A stretch of DNA of 64,000 nucleotides from a virus. The stretch lies in the IMG/VR virus record IMGVR_UViG_3300050499_000294, positions 98 through 64,097 of that record. One strand, written 5' to 3'. Below the pieces are notes generated by a model that saw only the letters and a list, made by a program, of their open reading frames with translations, searched no databases and had not been told where the DNA came from. Below, piece after piece: positions 44,119 to 51,565 of the stretch (positions within the stretch are counted from its first letter, which is position 1; each line of letters starts with the position of its first letter). Position numbers and translations under genes: made by a program.

Positions 44119-45669
44119 CTAAGCCACCTGCCGCGTCGTCCCATTGCGTCCCGGTGGTGGGGTTCCTGGTCCTGGAGGCAGCATGGCGAGCGGCCGTTGG
44201 GCTTGCTCGTCTTCAATCAGCGCCTGTTCTTCCTCTACAGGCACAAGTGGCCTTGCAATCTCCCCACGTTGTAAACAGAAATAGAACGTTTCGTACGAAA
44301 TAGTACCGTTGAGCAACGCTTGCATCAAGGCCAGGAGCATCTGCGGTTGCATCACATTCGATACGAGGTCCTTGTTGAGGACCACATGCACGGACGGATC
44401 ATCCACATTTTCAGTGAGGCCCTGCCACCACGCGTGCACTTGCAGTGCCCACGTGAGCCCTTGACTGACGCTGCTCACGAGGCTCTGCACGGGGCTATCG
44501 CTGCCCGCCATGCGCCACTGCACACCCGTGGCCGTTTCCTGGGTCTCCGGTGGACCTTCGAGGAGCCGCGCGCCCATCGCGGCCATCATTTGCAGATCGG
44601 CTTTGAGGGCGTTCTCGTGCGGCTGGAGGCCCTGCCCGTGAAACTCGACGATCCCCACCTTGGCTTGATTATCGGGCAGGAAGAGGGCCGAGCTGGCCCC
44701 CACGTACAGCTCCGGGGGCGCTTCCATGTTGGCGGCAATGTAGAACTGCGGCATGGCGGTCAAGTGTAAGGCATGCTCGTAGTCCGCGCTGTGGCGCCAG
44801 TTCAAAAAGTTCCTTTGGACTAAGCCTTCGAGGAGCGACTTCTCGGGCGTCGGCTCGAGCGAAAACGGCGCCATGAAGCAGAACGGGAGGAAGTCGAGCG
44901 GTTGCCCCTGGCGGGTCGGCATCCACACCCGCTGGAGCGTTGCGGCCTGGGCATTGGTACGCTGGCCAATCGGATCTTCCAGCCACAAGCTCACCTCGTA
45001 GAGCCCCCGTTCATTCAAGCGCAGCACGCGGTACTGAATCTGGTCTTTGACCACAAAGAAGTCGGGCGTCCCCCACGGGCCTTGTGGGACCTGCACACAT
45101 TCCCGCAGCACCACGAGCGACAGGATCGTATCGCCCCCCCGCTGCATCGTGCGCCAGTTAATAATCTCCTCGGCCTGGTACGCCACCCAGTACGGGCGAC
45201 TCTGCGGCGGCGGCGGGAGCAACTGACCATCGGGCGTGAGGTCACCGGTCGGGAAGTCGACCAGGATGCCGAAGCGCCCCATGAGTAAGGTCTCACGCAC
45301 CGCCTCTTCACAGAACATGCGCAGCGAAATGCCGGTCTGCGTAATGTCGGCCAGTTGCGGCTCTAAGGCAGCAGGCCCTACGAGTTGCGGCTCGTGGCGG
45401 AATACCGAGCCGGTAATCCCATGCACGGCGTGTTCTGTGGCACTCGTCCACGCGGGGCGATCCCGATACGCGGCGTACTGTTCATCGCGGCGCATCCCCG
45501 CTGGGCGTGGCAGATACGCCGTCCCATTGCGCGCTGTGGACGTACTGCGGCGGACGGCATCGAGGGGCTGTGCCGACTTGACGGCGGCTTCGCCCAGGTA
45601 GCCGTCGCGCAGCATCGCCCAGAGCGGCAGCATGGCACGATACGCCGGATGCGGAAGCGTGACACTCAT
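44119..45669 (-). CDS. Portal protein (DUF4055 type)
   Basis: After the terminase; RPYWVAYQAEEIINW, NWRHSADYEHALHLTAMP motifs. Confidence 0.9.
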   Translation of the reverse strand: MSVTLPHPAYRAMLPLWAMLRDGYLGEAAVKSAQPLDAVRRSTSTARNGTAYLPRPAGMRRDEQYAAYRDRPAWTSATEHAVHGITGSVFRHEPQLVGPAALEPQLADITQTGISLRMFCEEAVRETLLMGRFGILVDFPTGDLTPDGQLLPPPPQSRPYWVAYQAEEIINWRTMQRGGDTILSLVVLRECVQVPQGPWGTPDFFVVKDQIQYRVLRLNERGLYEVSLWLEDPIGQRTNAQAATLQRVWMPTRQGQPLDFLPFCFMAPFSLEPTPEKSLLEGLVQRNFLNWRHSADYEHALHLTAMPQFYIAANMEAPPELYVGASSALFLPDNQAKVGIVEFHGQGLQPHENALKADLQMMAAMGARLLEGPPETQETATGVQWRMAGSDSPVQSLVSSVSQGLTWALQVHAWWQGLTENVDDPSVHVVLNKDLVSNVMQPQMLLALMQALLNGTISYETFYFCLQRGEIARPLVPVEEEQALIEDEQAQRPLAMLPPGPGTPPPGRNGTTRQVA

Positions 45670-47123
45670 ATATGCAACTCCATCGCCAAACTCCTACGCG
45701 GCGGCGGCGCAAACGTACAGCCGAGTGCATCGGCAAGATCACACGAATGCCCGAGACGCTTGCGGATATGGTCTTTATCTTCAACCACGAGTTGTCCCTG
45801 GCTATCAAACCCATACCCCACACTCGCCAATTCCCCCGCGAGGTCCTCGCACGCGTTCGCAGCCGGTGCACAAAACACCGGCTGGGCCGTCCGCAGCCAC
45901 TCCGCCACTTCCAGCCAGAGATAATCGCGGAGGAGACGTGGCTTCGCCTCCGCAGGATGACGCACGACGGGAGCCTTCTCCGCCACATTCACCGCCGTAA
46001 TGCCGACACGGATCACGCCCTGACGTTTTAACTCCGCAAGGCGATCATAGACACCTGCACCCAACCCAATGACATCAATGGCGACTTCTTCCACCTGCCA
46101 GGGCTCCAAGACCGCGAGAATACAGCCGACCGTGGCCATGGTGTCCTGACGTGCATAGACCTTGATCTGGTCAATGAGACTCCCATGCCGCAAGACAAGC
46201 GCTGTACGATCTGAACCCAGTCGCGCCACATCTACGCCAAGCCGCCGCACCCCACCAGGCTCGCGTCGTTCACGAGTCAGACAGGGCTCGGTGAGCTCCA
46301 GGGAGATCAGCACGTCGTCGGCTTGGCGCGGGAATTCGCCGTCCGCGCGCACGCGCACCACATTGGAGCCTTCGCCCCACTTCGCCACGAGGCGGGGGCG
46401 GTAGGAGGCATCCACCAACGGCGAATCCTGCGAGCGAAAGTGCAGCGTGGTATAACTGCCCCGGTCCTTGTGATGGGAGGCGTAGAACGTGCCATTGGTG
46501 CGGGTGGGATTCCCCAACATGAGGACGCGGGCCTCGGGCGTCGAGAGCGCCCCTTCCGCCGCCTCAAACACTTCTTCGGGCATGCCGCTGGCTTCATCAA
46601 GGACGAAGAGCAGATGCGTCGCATGAAAGCCCTGGAGGGCTTCGGGGTTTTCCTTGCGAGCGGTGCGGGCGAACGCGCCCCATTCTTTCGCGCTGGGGTC
46701 CACGAGACTATCCGTGAGGAGCTTAAAAAGCCGCGAGAGCCAGAAGCGCGGCGGGTCGCCACGGGCGGCGCTGAGGGCATCCGCATGCCGACGCCACTTA
46801 CTGAGCTCGCCCCACAAAATGTCGCGGAGCTGATGCGAGGAAGGAGCCGAACAGGGGACTTTGGCATAGTCGTGGGTTTCGAGCATCCAACTCACCGCCC
46901 AGGCGGCACTCGAACTTTTGCCAATGCCGTGCCCAGAGCGCACCGAGACTTTCGCGCCGGGAGGGAGGATGGCCTCCAGAATCTGGGACTGCTGCAGCGT
47001 GGGCTCCATACCAAAGCGTTGGCGGACATAGAGGACGGGGTTCTCGCGCCAGCGGTCGCGCAGTTCGAGATACTGCTCGAAGGCCGACGCGGGCTCCGCG
47101 AGGTCAGTGAGGAGTGTCGCCAT
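45666..47123 (-). CDS. terL: Terminase large subunit
   Basis: VRSGHGIGKS (Walker A), LDEASG (Walker B), GVDVARLGSD and DLADAL nuclease motifs. Confidence 0.95.
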   Translation of the reverse strand: MATLLTDLAEPASAFEQYLELRDRWRENPVLYVRQRFGMEPTLQQSQILEAILPPGAKVSVRSGHGIGKSSSAAWAVSWMLETHDYAKVPCSAPSSHQLRDILWGELSKWRRHADALSAARGDPPRFWLSRLFKLLTDSLVDPSAKEWGAFARTARKENPEALQGFHATHLLFVLDEASGMPEEVFEAAEGALSTPEARVLMLGNPTRTNGTFYASHHKDRGSYTTLHFRSQDSPLVDASYRPRLVAKWGEGSNVVRVRADGEFPRQADDVLISLELTEPCLTRERREPGGVRRLGVDVARLGSDRTALVLRHGSLIDQIKVYARQDTMATVGCILAVLEPWQVEEVAIDVIGLGAGVYDRLAELKRQGVIRVGITAVNVAEKAPVVRHPAEAKPRLLRDYLWLEVAEWLRTAQPVFCAPAANACEDLAGELASVGYGFDSQGQLVVEDKDHIRKRLGHSCDLADALGCTFAPPPRRSLAMELHI

Positions 47124-47535
47124 TGGGAGCCTTTCGCGCTTGAGCCAGGAGGCTGGCCAGCCCGTCACTCAGTTCCACATCGAGACGTTGCTTCGCGGGA
47201 GCCAACTCGGGGTCGATCCGTTCGAGGACTTGGAGCGCGAGCAGCCCATTGCCGTCTTTAATAGTCCGCAGGAGTGCCGCACGGGAGGCATGTTCGAGAT
47301 CGACCAGCCAGCGCTTGCGGGCTTCGGCAAGCGCCAAGGCCCAGTGGTCTTTGCGAGATTCCCACGTGGCAATAGTGCGGATCGACCGCCCCACTGCACG
47401 CGCTGCATCCAACTGGGTAGCGCCCATCATCCGAAGATACGCGGCAAGGATACATTTTTCCCAATAGGGGATAGGCGGCGGGTTGGCACGCTGCGCATAG
47501 GCAACTTTTGGGGGAGGCCGGTGAGCAAACGCCAT
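47104..47535 (-). CDS. terS: Terminase small subunit
   Basis: N-terminal HTH (GATQLDAARAVGRSIRTIATWE) upstream of terL. Confidence 0.7.
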   Translation of the reverse strand: MAFAHRPPPKVAYAQRANPPPIPYWEKCILAAYLRMMGATQLDAARAVGRSIRTIATWESRKDHWALALAEARKRWLVDLEHASRAALLRTIKDGNGLLALQVLERIDPELAPAKQRLDVELSDGLASLLAQARKAPNGDTPH

Positions 47536-48147: not shown

Positions 48148-48363
48148 TTACGCCTCCGTCAAACCAAGCAGATAATCGGTACTCACCTTGAGTGCCGACG
48201 CCAAGCGCACAAAGCGCGGCAGATTCGGCATCGCTGTCCCACGCTCATACTTACTAATATCCGTCTTAAAGACCTGCGCCTTTCCAGCAAGGGCTTCCTG
48301 GCTCAGATCGGCCCGCCGCCGCGCCAGTAACAGGCGCTCCTGAAAGATATGCAATCGCTCCAT
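48148..48363 (-). CDS. XRE-family HTH repressor/Cro-like protein
   Basis: LSQEALAGKAQVFKTDISKYERG...LASALKVSTDYLLG. Confidence 0.9.
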   Translation of the reverse strand: MERLHIFQERLLLARRRADLSQEALAGKAQVFKTDISKYERGTAMPNLPRFVRLASALKVSTDYLLGLTEA

Positions 48364-48438: not shown

Positions 48439-48467
48439 TTGCCAATGTAAGCGAAGTCAGCTATACT
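48439..48467 (+). promoter_or_regulatory. Sigma70-type promoter of the early operon
   Basis: TTGCCA-17 nt-TATACT, back-to-back with the repressor promoter. Confidence 0.7.
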
Positions 48468-48665
48468 AGTAATCAGTTGGTTGGTTGATTGACAAGGCGA
48501 TGGGCGCTACAGAGTTGAGTACCTCATGTGTGCCGGCACTTAAGAAACCGGGGAGGGAAAGACAGAGCCAGGGCGAGAACGGGAACAGACCCCCGGAAGG
48601 CTACTGAAGACAAACGCCCCACCAGGAGAGCATTGAACGCGACGATCCTGGCGACGAGAGACAAC

Positions 48666-48715
48666 GGTGTCTGAGGCTGTGGGCCTCACTGACGAGTTGG
48701 AAACAACGAAACACC
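48666..48715 (+). ncRNA. Hammerhead ribozyme (type III)
   Basis: GGTG-TC^, stem I TGAGGC/GCCTCA, core CTGACGA, stem II GTTG-GAAA-CAAC, GAAA, stem III CACC; predicted cleavage after C48671. Confidence 0.9.
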
Positions 48716-48730
48716 AAGGAGAATGAGACG

Positions 48731-48940
48731 ATGACCACCACAACCCTCGACACCACCATTGCCCGCATCCTGACGGCCCTCGACAACGATTCAACGACCT
48801 GTATGGCCGTGCTGGAGGAGGTCCAGGCCTACCGCTGGGCGCATCCGTCTGATGGTGTGGCGGACGCGATCACCGACGCCGTGCGCACCTGGCATGCCGC
48901 GTATGCACGCCGGATGCAGGAATGGTGGAGGCAGGTGTGA
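48731..48940 (+). CDS. Small hypothetical early protein between the two ribozymes
   Basis: RBS AAGGAG; 69 aa. Confidence 0.7.
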   Translation: MTTTTLDTTIARILTALDNDSTTCMAVLEEVQAYRWAHPSDGVADAITDAVRTWHAAYARRMQEWWRQV

Positions 48941-49000
48941 GACGACCCCGGAAAACGACCAGACGACCCACGGTAACGCCTGTGTATGTCCCTGAATAAC

Positions 49001-49066
49001 GCAGAGTGCGCCAGCCCCACGCTGGCGGAATGCGGCCCCGCACGGTGCGGGACGGTCACAAGCCCG
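49001..49066 (+). ncRNA. Twister ribozyme (P5-type permutation)
   Basis: GCA-GAGTG-P1(CGCCAGC/GCTGGCG)-G^AA-TGC-GGCC-P3-CGG-TCACAAGC-CCG; CAC/GTG pseudoknot complementary; predicted cleavage 49028/49029. Confidence 0.85.
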
Positions 49067-49088
49067 AACAACCAAGGAGACACGAACC

Positions 49089-49283
49089 ATGATTCACGTA
49101 AACACGCGCCAGTACGAAGTCTGCCACGGCCACACGCCCCGGCAACCCCGCGGCGCACCGACGGCTTTGTGGGCCATCCAGATCGATGACGATCCGGCCC
49201 CGCGCTATCTCCGCATGCACCTCCGGGACGCGATCGCCCAAGCCAAAGCCTGGGCGACGACCTCCATCACCATTCTCCCCTAA
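49089..49283 (+). CDS. Small hypothetical early protein
   Basis: RBS AAGGAG directly after the twister. Confidence 0.65.
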   Translation: MIHVNTRQYEVCHGHTPRQPRGAPTALWAIQIDDDPAPRYLRMHLRDAIAQAKAWATTSITILP

Positions 49284-49307
49284 CCGCACCACCAAGGAGA
49301 CACGACC

Positions 49308-49841
49308 ATGACGATCACCCAGTTTGACACCGACCTCCGCGCCCTGGCTGAGCGGGCCAGCACCAAGTACCCTGCCGATACGAAGCGCATCGCCAAAGCG
49401 CTCCTCCTCGCCCTGAACGGCCATGTCCACGTCAACCCCGATAGCACCTGTGTCGTCACCTCGCAGGCAGACCCGGAGGTGGTCTACCGGGTCGCGCACG
49501 GCACGTGCGACTGTCCCGATGCCGTGCAGCATCCAGAGACGGCCTGCAAACATCGCTATGCCGCCGCGATGGTCAAACGCGCGCAGCGCCCCCGCATCAC
49601 CTATCGGGCGACGTACAAGGGCGACCAGGGCCAGGCGATCCGCGACGAGCAGATGCGCGTGTGGTTTCAGAGCGATGCCACGGATGAGGTCACGCGCCTG
49701 TATGACCACGACCGAGCCAATCTGCAACTTCATGGGCACCTGGGGTTAGTGGCCGAAGCCAAGCTGGCAGATCTTCAGCAAGGCGCGGACCTTGCTCGCC
49801 TTGAGGCCCACAAGACCGAGGCAACTATCCTCAACGCCTAG
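49308..49841 (+). CDS. SWIM zinc-finger-like protein
   Basis: GTCDCPD...ACKHRYAA. Confidence 0.7.
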   Translation: MTITQFDTDLRALAERASTKYPADTKRIAKALLLALNGHVHVNPDSTCVVTSQADPEVVYRVAHGTCDCPDAVQHPETACKHRYAAAMVKRAQRPRITYRATYKGDQGQAIRDEQMRVWFQSDATDEVTRLYDHDRANLQLHGHLGLVAEAKLADLQQGADLARLEAHKTEATILNA

Positions 49842-49857
49842 GAGGGGCAGACAGCCA

Positions 49858-50805
49858 ATGGAGGTAGCGTGCGATATCTGTGGGCAGCGGTTTCCCACCA
49901 ACCGGCCCCGACAACTACGCTGCTCACCAGCTTGTAGCAAAGCGGCGAAGGAGCGCTGGGGACGTACCAAGAGAGGCGTCATCCCAGCGCGTATGCGCGG
50001 GGCCATCATGCAATGCCTCATCTGTGGCAACGACTTGATGCGAAAAGGCGCGACACAGCAATACTGTGCGGTATGCAAAAAGATCCACGAAAAAGCCTAT
50101 GCGCGACGCTATAAAGGCAGTGCAGAAGAGAGATGCATTGGCGCGATCTTCTCCTGTGTCGTCTGCGGAACAAGCACCGCGCGCACAGGAGCGCATCAGA
50201 AGTATTGCTCAGATACCTGTTATGCCATAGCCAACGTGCGCCGAGACAGGATGCGACATGCTCGTGTACTAATCGTCGGCTCACTTTTCTCGTGTCATAC
50301 CTGTGGCAAGACGAGCAGGCGCGGGCGCAATTGGCGACAAAAATACTGCTCAGACGTCTGCCGAAGAGCAGGAGAGCGCACAGCAAAACGTGAGCGATTA
50401 GGGCGAACACAATTTGTTGGTGCCCTCTTTGCCTGTGCTATCTGCGGCACGGAAGCCCTGCGGACGACTGGATCACAAATTTATTGCTCAGAGGAGTGCT
50501 ATCAGACCGCCGCCTATCGTCATCGGGCAGCACGCATCAAGACAAGCATAGGCACGCGCTATACGCGACGACACATCTTTACCAGAGATGGCTGGCGCTG
50601 CCAATCGTGCTGGAAAAAGGTGCGAGATAACGTGCCGCTTCGCCATAGCGCACGTGCCACCATTGACCATATTCTCCCCCTCACGAAAGGCGGACTTGAA
50701 TGTGAAAGTAACGTCCACACGCTCTGCTGGCCCTGTAATCACGCCAAAGGAAACCGCGTAGGATCGAATGATCAATTACGGCTGGCACTGGGCGAGATCA
50801 TATAA
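49858..50805 (+). CDS. HNH endonuclease with five tandem Zn-ribbon modules
   Basis: Repeated CxxCG...Q.YCSxxC; C-terminal TIDHILPLTKGG...NVHTLCWPCNHAKG. Confidence 0.85.
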   Translation: MEVACDICGQRFPTNRPRQLRCSPACSKAAKERWGRTKRGVIPARMRGAIMQCLICGNDLMRKGATQQYCAVCKKIHEKAYARRYKGSAEERCIGAIFSCVVCGTSTARTGAHQKYCSDTCYAIANVRRDRMRHARVLIVGSLFSCHTCGKTSRRGRNWRQKYCSDVCRRAGERTAKRERLGRTQFVGALFACAICGTEALRTTGSQIYCSEECYQTAAYRHRAARIKTSIGTRYTRRHIFTRDGWRCQSCWKKVRDNVPLRHSARATIDHILPLTKGGLECESNVHTLCWPCNHAKGNRVGSNDQLRLALGEII

Positions 50806-51169: not shown

Positions 51170-51565
51170 ATGACCCGCAAAAGTATTGCCCTCTGGACAC
51201 TCGCCTGGACGCTCGCAGCCCTGCTCCTCATCGCGTGGGTTGCCCTGGCTGAGGCGGGCGGCGCGCCCAAAAAACGACCATCGACCGCAACGGACGCGCT
51301 GCCTGTGAACCTGACACGGATGTGTCCCCTCCTCGGGGAATATGCGGCCACGGTCGCCGCGTCCCGCGATGCGGGGACCACGCTCAGTGGCAGTCTCCAC
51401 CTCATTCGGCAGGAGACAAGGATGCAGGGCATGGATAGCAATTTACAGGCGATCCTCCAAGAGATTGTCTACCAGGTCTACCGCTATCCGTCCATCACCC
51501 CGCGCCAGGTGCAACAGGTAGCCGAGCGCGCTTGTTGGGAAACCCAGGCAGGCGCAACGCACTAG
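51170..51565 (+). CDS. Exported two-Cys protein
   Basis: Signal peptide; paralog of 51813..52229. Confidence 0.7.
   Translation: MTRKSIALWTLAWTLAALLLIAWVALAEAGGAPKKRPSTATDALPVNLTRMCPLLGEYAATVAASRDAGTTLSGSLHLIRQETRMQGMDSNLQAILQEIVYQVYRYPSITPRQVQQVAERACWETQAGATH

Follow-up and report, generated by a model that had tools for sequence, protein, structure and literature searches.

The early operon of this provirus opens with two predicted self-cleaving ribozymes of different classes, a type III hammerhead and a type-P5 twister, and both are probably processing elements that define new 5′ ends on the early mRNA. Each ribozyme abuts a Shine-Dalgarno sequence downstream of a strong candidate promoter, and this arrangement, together with the published precedent in prophages (PMC3088659, PMC6765202), favours self-segmentation of the early mRNA. 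An earlier note on this DNA had suggested such segmentation; the suggestion would stand as the best reading of the locus, but not as a new one, since the proposal is of long standing.

The DNA analysed (the window, 64,000 nt in all) belongs to a provirus record in IMG/VR that is 64,380 nt long. Assignment to Pfam and PHROG families identifies portal, terminase, HTH regulator, and HNH genes, which together provide the phage context. The portal gene (44119–45669), the large terminase gene (45666–47168), and the gene for a 71-residue Xre-type HTH regulator (48148–48363) all lie on the − strand, to the left of the ribozyme locus. The ribozyme locus itself is the start of a rightward (+) early operon, past an AT-rich divergent region. 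A candidate sigma-70-type early promoter (TTGCCA-17 nt-TATACT, 48439–48467, + strand), with 10 of 12 consensus matches, is located in this divergent region. Gene order on the + strand is a leader of ~200 nt, ORF69, ORF64, ORF177, an HNH endonuclease gene, and a VRR-NUC nuclease gene. The leader RNA (48475–48671), its start placed by the −10 box, would be removable by hammerhead cleavage; ORF64 (49089–49283) is the first cistron past the twister cut. No terminator-like site is present on the + strand downstream of the promoter, up to position 51200. In BLASTN comparisons with deposited phage genomes, the locus and the portal-terminase region give no match, and the portal protein has no relative in the species genomes.

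A search of the whole 64 kb with Rfam at E < 0.5 returns exactly two matches, Hammerhead_3 and twister-P5, both on the + strand. The hammerhead (RF00008) spans 48664–48717 and scores 43.1 bits, which is ~5 bits under the Rfam gathering score of 48.5, yet a chance match remains far from likely, the E value over the entire window being 4e-6. The core elements that we looked for (C3-U4-G5-A6-N7-G8-A9, G12-A13-A14, an A15.1–U16.1 pair, and H17 at the cleavage site) are all present: read from the sequence and the Rfam alignment, the core is complete, with CUGACGA, GAAA, the A15.1–U16.1 pair, and a GUC triplet. The GUC triplet and the placement of the core predict a cut after C48671 (48671/48672). 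Stem III is an open helix of 5 bp (GGUGU/ACACC), stem II has 4 bp and is closed by GAAA, and stem I has 6–7 bp and a UGUG loop; our own descriptor finds the motif as well, with stems of 7, 4, and 5 bp. When the 54-nt hammerhead is folded alone, the canonical three-stem shape is both the minimum-energy and the centroid structure and accounts for 40% of the ensemble. Within a 106-nt context, the minimum-energy fold is a competitor structure. Fast cleavage at cellular Mg2+ requires loops I and II to touch in a tertiary contact, and both loops are short here. Taken as a whole, the hammerhead motif looks genuine, and cleavage is predicted. The hammerhead pattern including the junction of stem III with the binding site, as it stands in the window, is found in no other place among the viral contigs searched (0 matches).

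In the same 106-nt fold, UCCUGG (48646–48651) can pair over the first Shine-Dalgarno sequence (48714–48720), as would be expected of a binding site gated by cleavage. We dropped this candidate, because the fold is no better than those of shuffled sequences and the UCCUGG segment is not conserved in L002, the closest different phage.

The type-P5 twister (RF02684; 49000–49067, + strand) has a P3 hairpin and reaches 44.9 bits, more than the 37.6 bits required for gathering; its E value for the window is 4e-6, and the match covers all model positions (1–58 of 58). By inspection, P2 is CGCA/UGCG, P1 is a 7-bp hairpin, P3 is a hairpin, and P4 is CGG/CCG. Two pseudoknots are formed, T1 as GUG:CAC, with the CAC in the P4 loop, and T2 as GC:GC. 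The catalytic features are in place: AA and GAG are both there, with the A at +1 as general acid and the G of GAG as general base. The predicted cut, between G49028 and A49029, follows from the sequence G|AAUGC. The sole unusual feature is the G at position −1, where a comparison set of phage twisters has U in 60 of 61 cases and C in the remaining one. Imperfections at −1 were broadly tolerated in a large assay of natural twisters (PMC11662667). The window motif thus resembles known type-P5 twisters in fold, permutation, and above-cut-off score, and differs from them in having G rather than U at −1 and in the presence of the P3 hairpin. Like the hammerhead, it looks genuine and is predicted to cleave.

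Short contigs from two wastewater runs (X1 and X2) match only the hammerhead core (48682–48721) and the 3′ half of the twister (49035–49066), at 85–95% identity and with other flanks. Related ribozyme modules are, to judge from these matches, present in other organisms of that wastewater. That the runs are RNA is a guess, and the matches are uninformative on ends or expression at the present locus.

The predicted cuts at 48671/48672 and 49028/49029 are separated by 357 nt. As the earlier note had it, the two ribozymes, on the + strand at these sites, bracket one ribosome-binding site and one 69-residue ORF, and we find the same arrangement. The Shine-Dalgarno sequence of ORF69 (AAGGAGA, 48716–48722) begins 3 nt past C48713, where stem III has its final pair, and its first two bases are also the final two of the Rfam hammerhead match, leaving a gap of 0 nt. 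ORF69 (48731–48940) is the sole ORF with a binding site inside the piece. It is an orphan early gene: it belongs to no Pfam or PHROG family, a set of 5.8 billion proteins contains no homologue apart from the protein itself, viral contigs and the ESM Atlas yield no relative, and the gene is present only in identical copies of this phage. The Shine-Dalgarno sequence of ORF64 (AAGGAGA, 49074–49080) is positioned 6 nt past the twister end. An initiation element shared by the first three early genes had also been noted, and its existence is confirmed. The window contains exactly three copies of ACCAAGGAGA (48713, 49071, and 49291), one ahead of each of these genes, against 0.06 matches expected by chance. 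The third copy precedes ORF177 (49308–49841; 49291–49841 with the element), a gene without a ribozyme in front.

Twisters are placed in the same way in other viruses. We scanned viral contigs for the 3′ half of a twister followed within 2–14 nt by AAGGAG and obtained 61 sites in 60 contigs, where our own estimate of chance gives fewer than one. Each of the 61 is a complete P5 twister with a start codon downstream, the P1 hairpin differing among them, and the window twister has the same architecture, the same GUG:CAC variant of T1, and the same position close to the Shine-Dalgarno sequence. When 20 representative contigs are searched with Rfam, 5 contain two or three tandem twisters on one strand. 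The pieces between tandem twisters are 283, 302, 452, 589, and 1027 nt long, with one ORF each (62–289 residues) starting 33–57 nt from the cut. Hammerhead and twister are combined in two contigs, one with a type II hammerhead detected by Rfam and the other (L052) with a type III hammerhead, detected by our own descriptor, ahead of two twisters. Bracketing of a single gene by putative ribozymes recurs among phages, and the window would be a mixed-class version of this layout.

Tandem P5 twisters around single small genes are seen in L031, L032, L052, L074, and L075. Such a same-class piece begins with the 3′ half of one twister and ends with the 5′ half of the next, with matching P2 sequences (CGCA/UGCG). 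The ends of a same-class piece could in principle rebuild a twister, whereas those of the mixed pair in the window could not.

We propose the following course of events. Transcription from the promoter near 48439–48467 would produce the ~200-nt leader and then the early genes. During RNA synthesis, the hammerhead would cut after C48671 and the leader would be discarded; the twister would cut after G49028 and part ORF69 from ORF64 and the later genes. Each downstream product would then carry a 5′-OH and the leftover compact hairpins of its ribozyme, with the Shine-Dalgarno sequence 44–45 nt from the new 5′ end and the start codon at nucleotide 60–61, which corresponds to predicted processed 5′ UTRs of 59 and 60 nt. 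In this way, the translation start and the decay of each cistron may be uncoupled from the upstream RNA. The 357-nt single-gene RNA would be a by-product of two successive junctions, each made of a ribozyme and a binding site, and not a purpose-built excision unit.

The consequence of the 5′-OH for RNA stability may go either way. A 5′-OH protects against RNase E-type decay, which depends on a 5′-monophosphate, and the 5′-OH product of the glmS ribozyme is degraded by RNase J1. The suggestion in the earlier note that 5′-OH ends resist decay is therefore sound for RNase E-type decay but not for RNase J1, and whether the new ends are stabilising or destabilising depends on the RNases of the host.

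Elsewhere, in several metagenome samples, every recurrence of the locus is an identical copy. Among phages that differ from it, L002 is the nearest, and ten further loci are identical to L002. The window phage and L002 share ORF112 (89% nucleotide identity), ORF64 (93% nucleotide and 94% amino-acid identity), and the promoter architecture, the −35 hexamer and the spacing being identical. A search of metagenome contigs with ORF64 yields a single locus, identical to L002. The HTH genes of the two phages (window 48148–48363; L002:2216–2431) are unrelated, with 51% nucleotide identity, indicating that L002 is heteroimmune. The change of HTH gene between the conserved ORF112 and ORF64 is, by its conserved flanks, an immunity-region swap. 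Variation is also seen further down the operon. The HNH endonuclease gene that follows ORF177 (window 49792–50805) is uncalled in the otherwise identical contig L006 (2886–3813), and its place in an L002-type phage (L012:2306–2503) is occupied by a small gene of the Imm_superinfect family; this appears to be a variable slot of the early operon.

L002 is without ORF69, the hammerhead, and the P5 twister. At the hammerhead position, between the same GGUGU...ACACC helix and the same AAGGAGA, it carries a 57-nt element (L002:2706–2768), which is also present in L008–L010 and L012–L017. By our own descriptor, this element can be read as a twister of type P1 that includes a P3 hairpin. It comprises U|AA at 2710/2711, P2 as UGAG/CUCA, T2 as CC with GG, P4 as GCUG/CAGC, and AUAAA followed by GA and then by T1 as UGA with UCA, so that both pseudoknots are kept via compensatory changes. 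It deviates at one position only, where C replaces the first of two loop adenines; this is probably the loop position that a large twister assay found most often imperfect in nature. With the Rfam twister-P1 model, nothing is found in the L002 record at E ≤ 10, and cmscan reports only a partial match to twister-P3 of 14 bits. A descriptor of the canonical architecture matches once in the L002 element and not at all in 1.17 Mb of other loci or in 20 Mb of random sequence; it was written after the element had been seen, so the support that it gives is strong but not independent. If the twister reading is right, two sister phages would cut the same leader within 1 nt of each other with ribozymes of different classes. 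The retention in L002 of a ribozyme-like element ahead of the first binding site, with a predicted cut 1 nt from that of the hammerhead, suggests that what is conserved is leader removal.

In the comparison of the window with L002, ORF69 and the P5 twister make up an insertion/deletion of 358 nt that is bounded by ACCAAGGAGA at 48713 and 49071. A module of this kind is what would be expected if the ribozymes were cassette baggage, carried along with small accessory genes as junctions of modules that are shuffled among phages and of little effect on expression, or if one of them were inactive in vivo. We regard this explanation as doubtful, although several observations point in its direction. 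ORF69 is an orphan, and the genes beside phage ribozymes vary in identity (PMC3088659); the score of the hammerhead is under the gathering cut-off, and G is a rare base at −1 of a twister. In addition, the distant relatives L003, L004, and L011 carry homologous genes behind short leaders in which no ribozyme is found, indicating that ribozymes are dispensable for these early genes. However, both cores are intact, with all catalytic nucleotides there, and twisters tolerate changes at −1. The tight spacing to the Shine-Dalgarno sequence recurs in many unrelated phages, which argues that the junction is under selection.

Over its whole length, the leader has 68% identity between the window and L002, and a 54-nt block in it (48511–48565) is identical at 51 of 54 positions. 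Among viral contigs, the conserved leader pattern is found only in L002's own contig. The block contains the palindrome GUGCCGGCAC and is conserved though the regulators and operators are unrelated. By our own reading it holds no conserved ORF, and it matches no Rfam family; possible readings are an RNA element of the leader and a binding site for a protein. Conservation of a noncoding block in two heteroimmune phages with unrelated neighbouring HTH genes, and the presence in both of a ribozyme-like element at the same leader boundary, would fit with a hammerhead cut that mainly frees the leader as a functional RNA (a regulatory, antitermination-type, or small RNA) with a cyclic-phosphate end, the effect on ORF69 being secondary. 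Such a role is unlikely. Public data for the region contain two haplotypes only, too few for covariation. Moreover, release of the leader would leave unexplained both the second ribozyme and the module of twister plus binding site that is present in 60 contigs.

The ends produced by hammerheads and twisters, a 5′-OH and a 2′,3′-cyclic phosphate, are suited to RtcB. It is nevertheless very improbable that a host RtcB-type ligase joins the cyclic phosphate of G49028 to the 5′-OH of U48672 to give a 357-nt exonuclease-resistant circle with the binding site and ORF69. RtcB is common in bacteria (present in 10 of 14 control genomes), but none is encoded in the 64-kb phage record. In the Tornado system, as outlined in PMC12628768, a coding RNA between two self-cleaving ribozymes is circularised by native E. 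coli RtcB. The ends of Tornado RNAs are designed to pair, whereas those of the 357-nt piece are not complementary above chance. The duplex energy of its first and last 20–40 nt is no better than that of shuffles (fraction at least as good, 0.37–0.78), the summed end-to-end pair probability is 0.000, and each end is folded into its own hairpin; the fold of the whole piece is likewise no better than shuffles (z = −0.08). Viroid-like and retrozyme circular RNAs have the same ribozyme at both ends, unlike the present piece, in which the 5′ end comes from the 3′ product of the hammerhead and the 3′ end from the 5′ product of the twister, so that no ribozyme would be rebuilt and no self-ligation is expected. 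In comparable arrangements, Perreault et al. considered circular and spliced products and detected none (PMC3088659). L002, for its part, is without the whole cassette. The circular mRNA put forward in the earlier note thus gains no specific support from the locus; if it were true, it would be a natural bacterial counterpart of Tornado and an unusually long-lived template for one early phage protein.

Segmentation of the early mRNA by the two ribozymes agrees with what has been published. Hammerheads in prophages flank single genes or short blocks and cleave in vitro and in E. coli, and Perreault et al. (2011) proposed that they process transcripts into single-gene mRNAs (PMC3088659). In their layout, as in the window, at least two ribozymes share the coding strand of a phage operon and enclose small genes, which differ in identity from case to case. 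The published ribozymes are all hammerheads for which cleavage was shown, whereas the window pair is mixed, a type III hammerhead and a type-P5 twister, and is known from sequence. The twister class was introduced by Roth et al. (2014), and a review describes it as having gene neighbourhoods in common with hammerheads (PMC6765202). The same review mentions proposals that polycistronic RNAs are processed and remarks that it seems to matter little exactly which RNA motif is used (PMC6765202). A publication of 2011 and a review of 2019 already cover the layout as well as the ideas of segmentation and of a circular RNA (PMC3088659, PMC6765202).

Two further systems illustrate what a hammerhead ahead of an early gene may do. 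In the haloviruses HF1 and HF2, as they are described in PMC3088659, a hammerhead precedes the first ORF of an early polycistronic transcript and the mature mRNA starts at the cut; the 5′ end of the HF2 early transcript lies within 3 nt of the cut. By that description, HF1 and HF2 differ from the present phage in being archaeal viruses with a variant hammerhead and an experimentally mapped 5′ end, whereas the end in the window is predicted from sequence. RiboJ insulators resemble the locus in having a ribozyme directly upstream of the binding site, where it strips a variable leader and leaves a 5′-OH and a hairpin. When placed ahead of a binding site in E. coli, RiboJ raises transcript and protein levels (PMC6206723). 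RiboJ is engineered and derived from a satellite RNA hammerhead, and its resemblance to the window is functional, not familial.

The one addition made here, and the detail worth testing, is the apparent class swap in L002. A possible exchange of ribozyme class between the window and L002 is in line with the published opinion that it matters little exactly which motif is used (PMC6765202). To the question of what the many self-cleaving ribozymes of phage operons are for, the locus contributes one clean example but no answer. It is of practical use as a test case, in which heteroimmune sister phages carry a hammerhead or an apparent twister at the same junction and within the same outer helix. 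One of the sisters has an extra module of gene plus twister, and the pair bears on whether only the cut matters for early expression.
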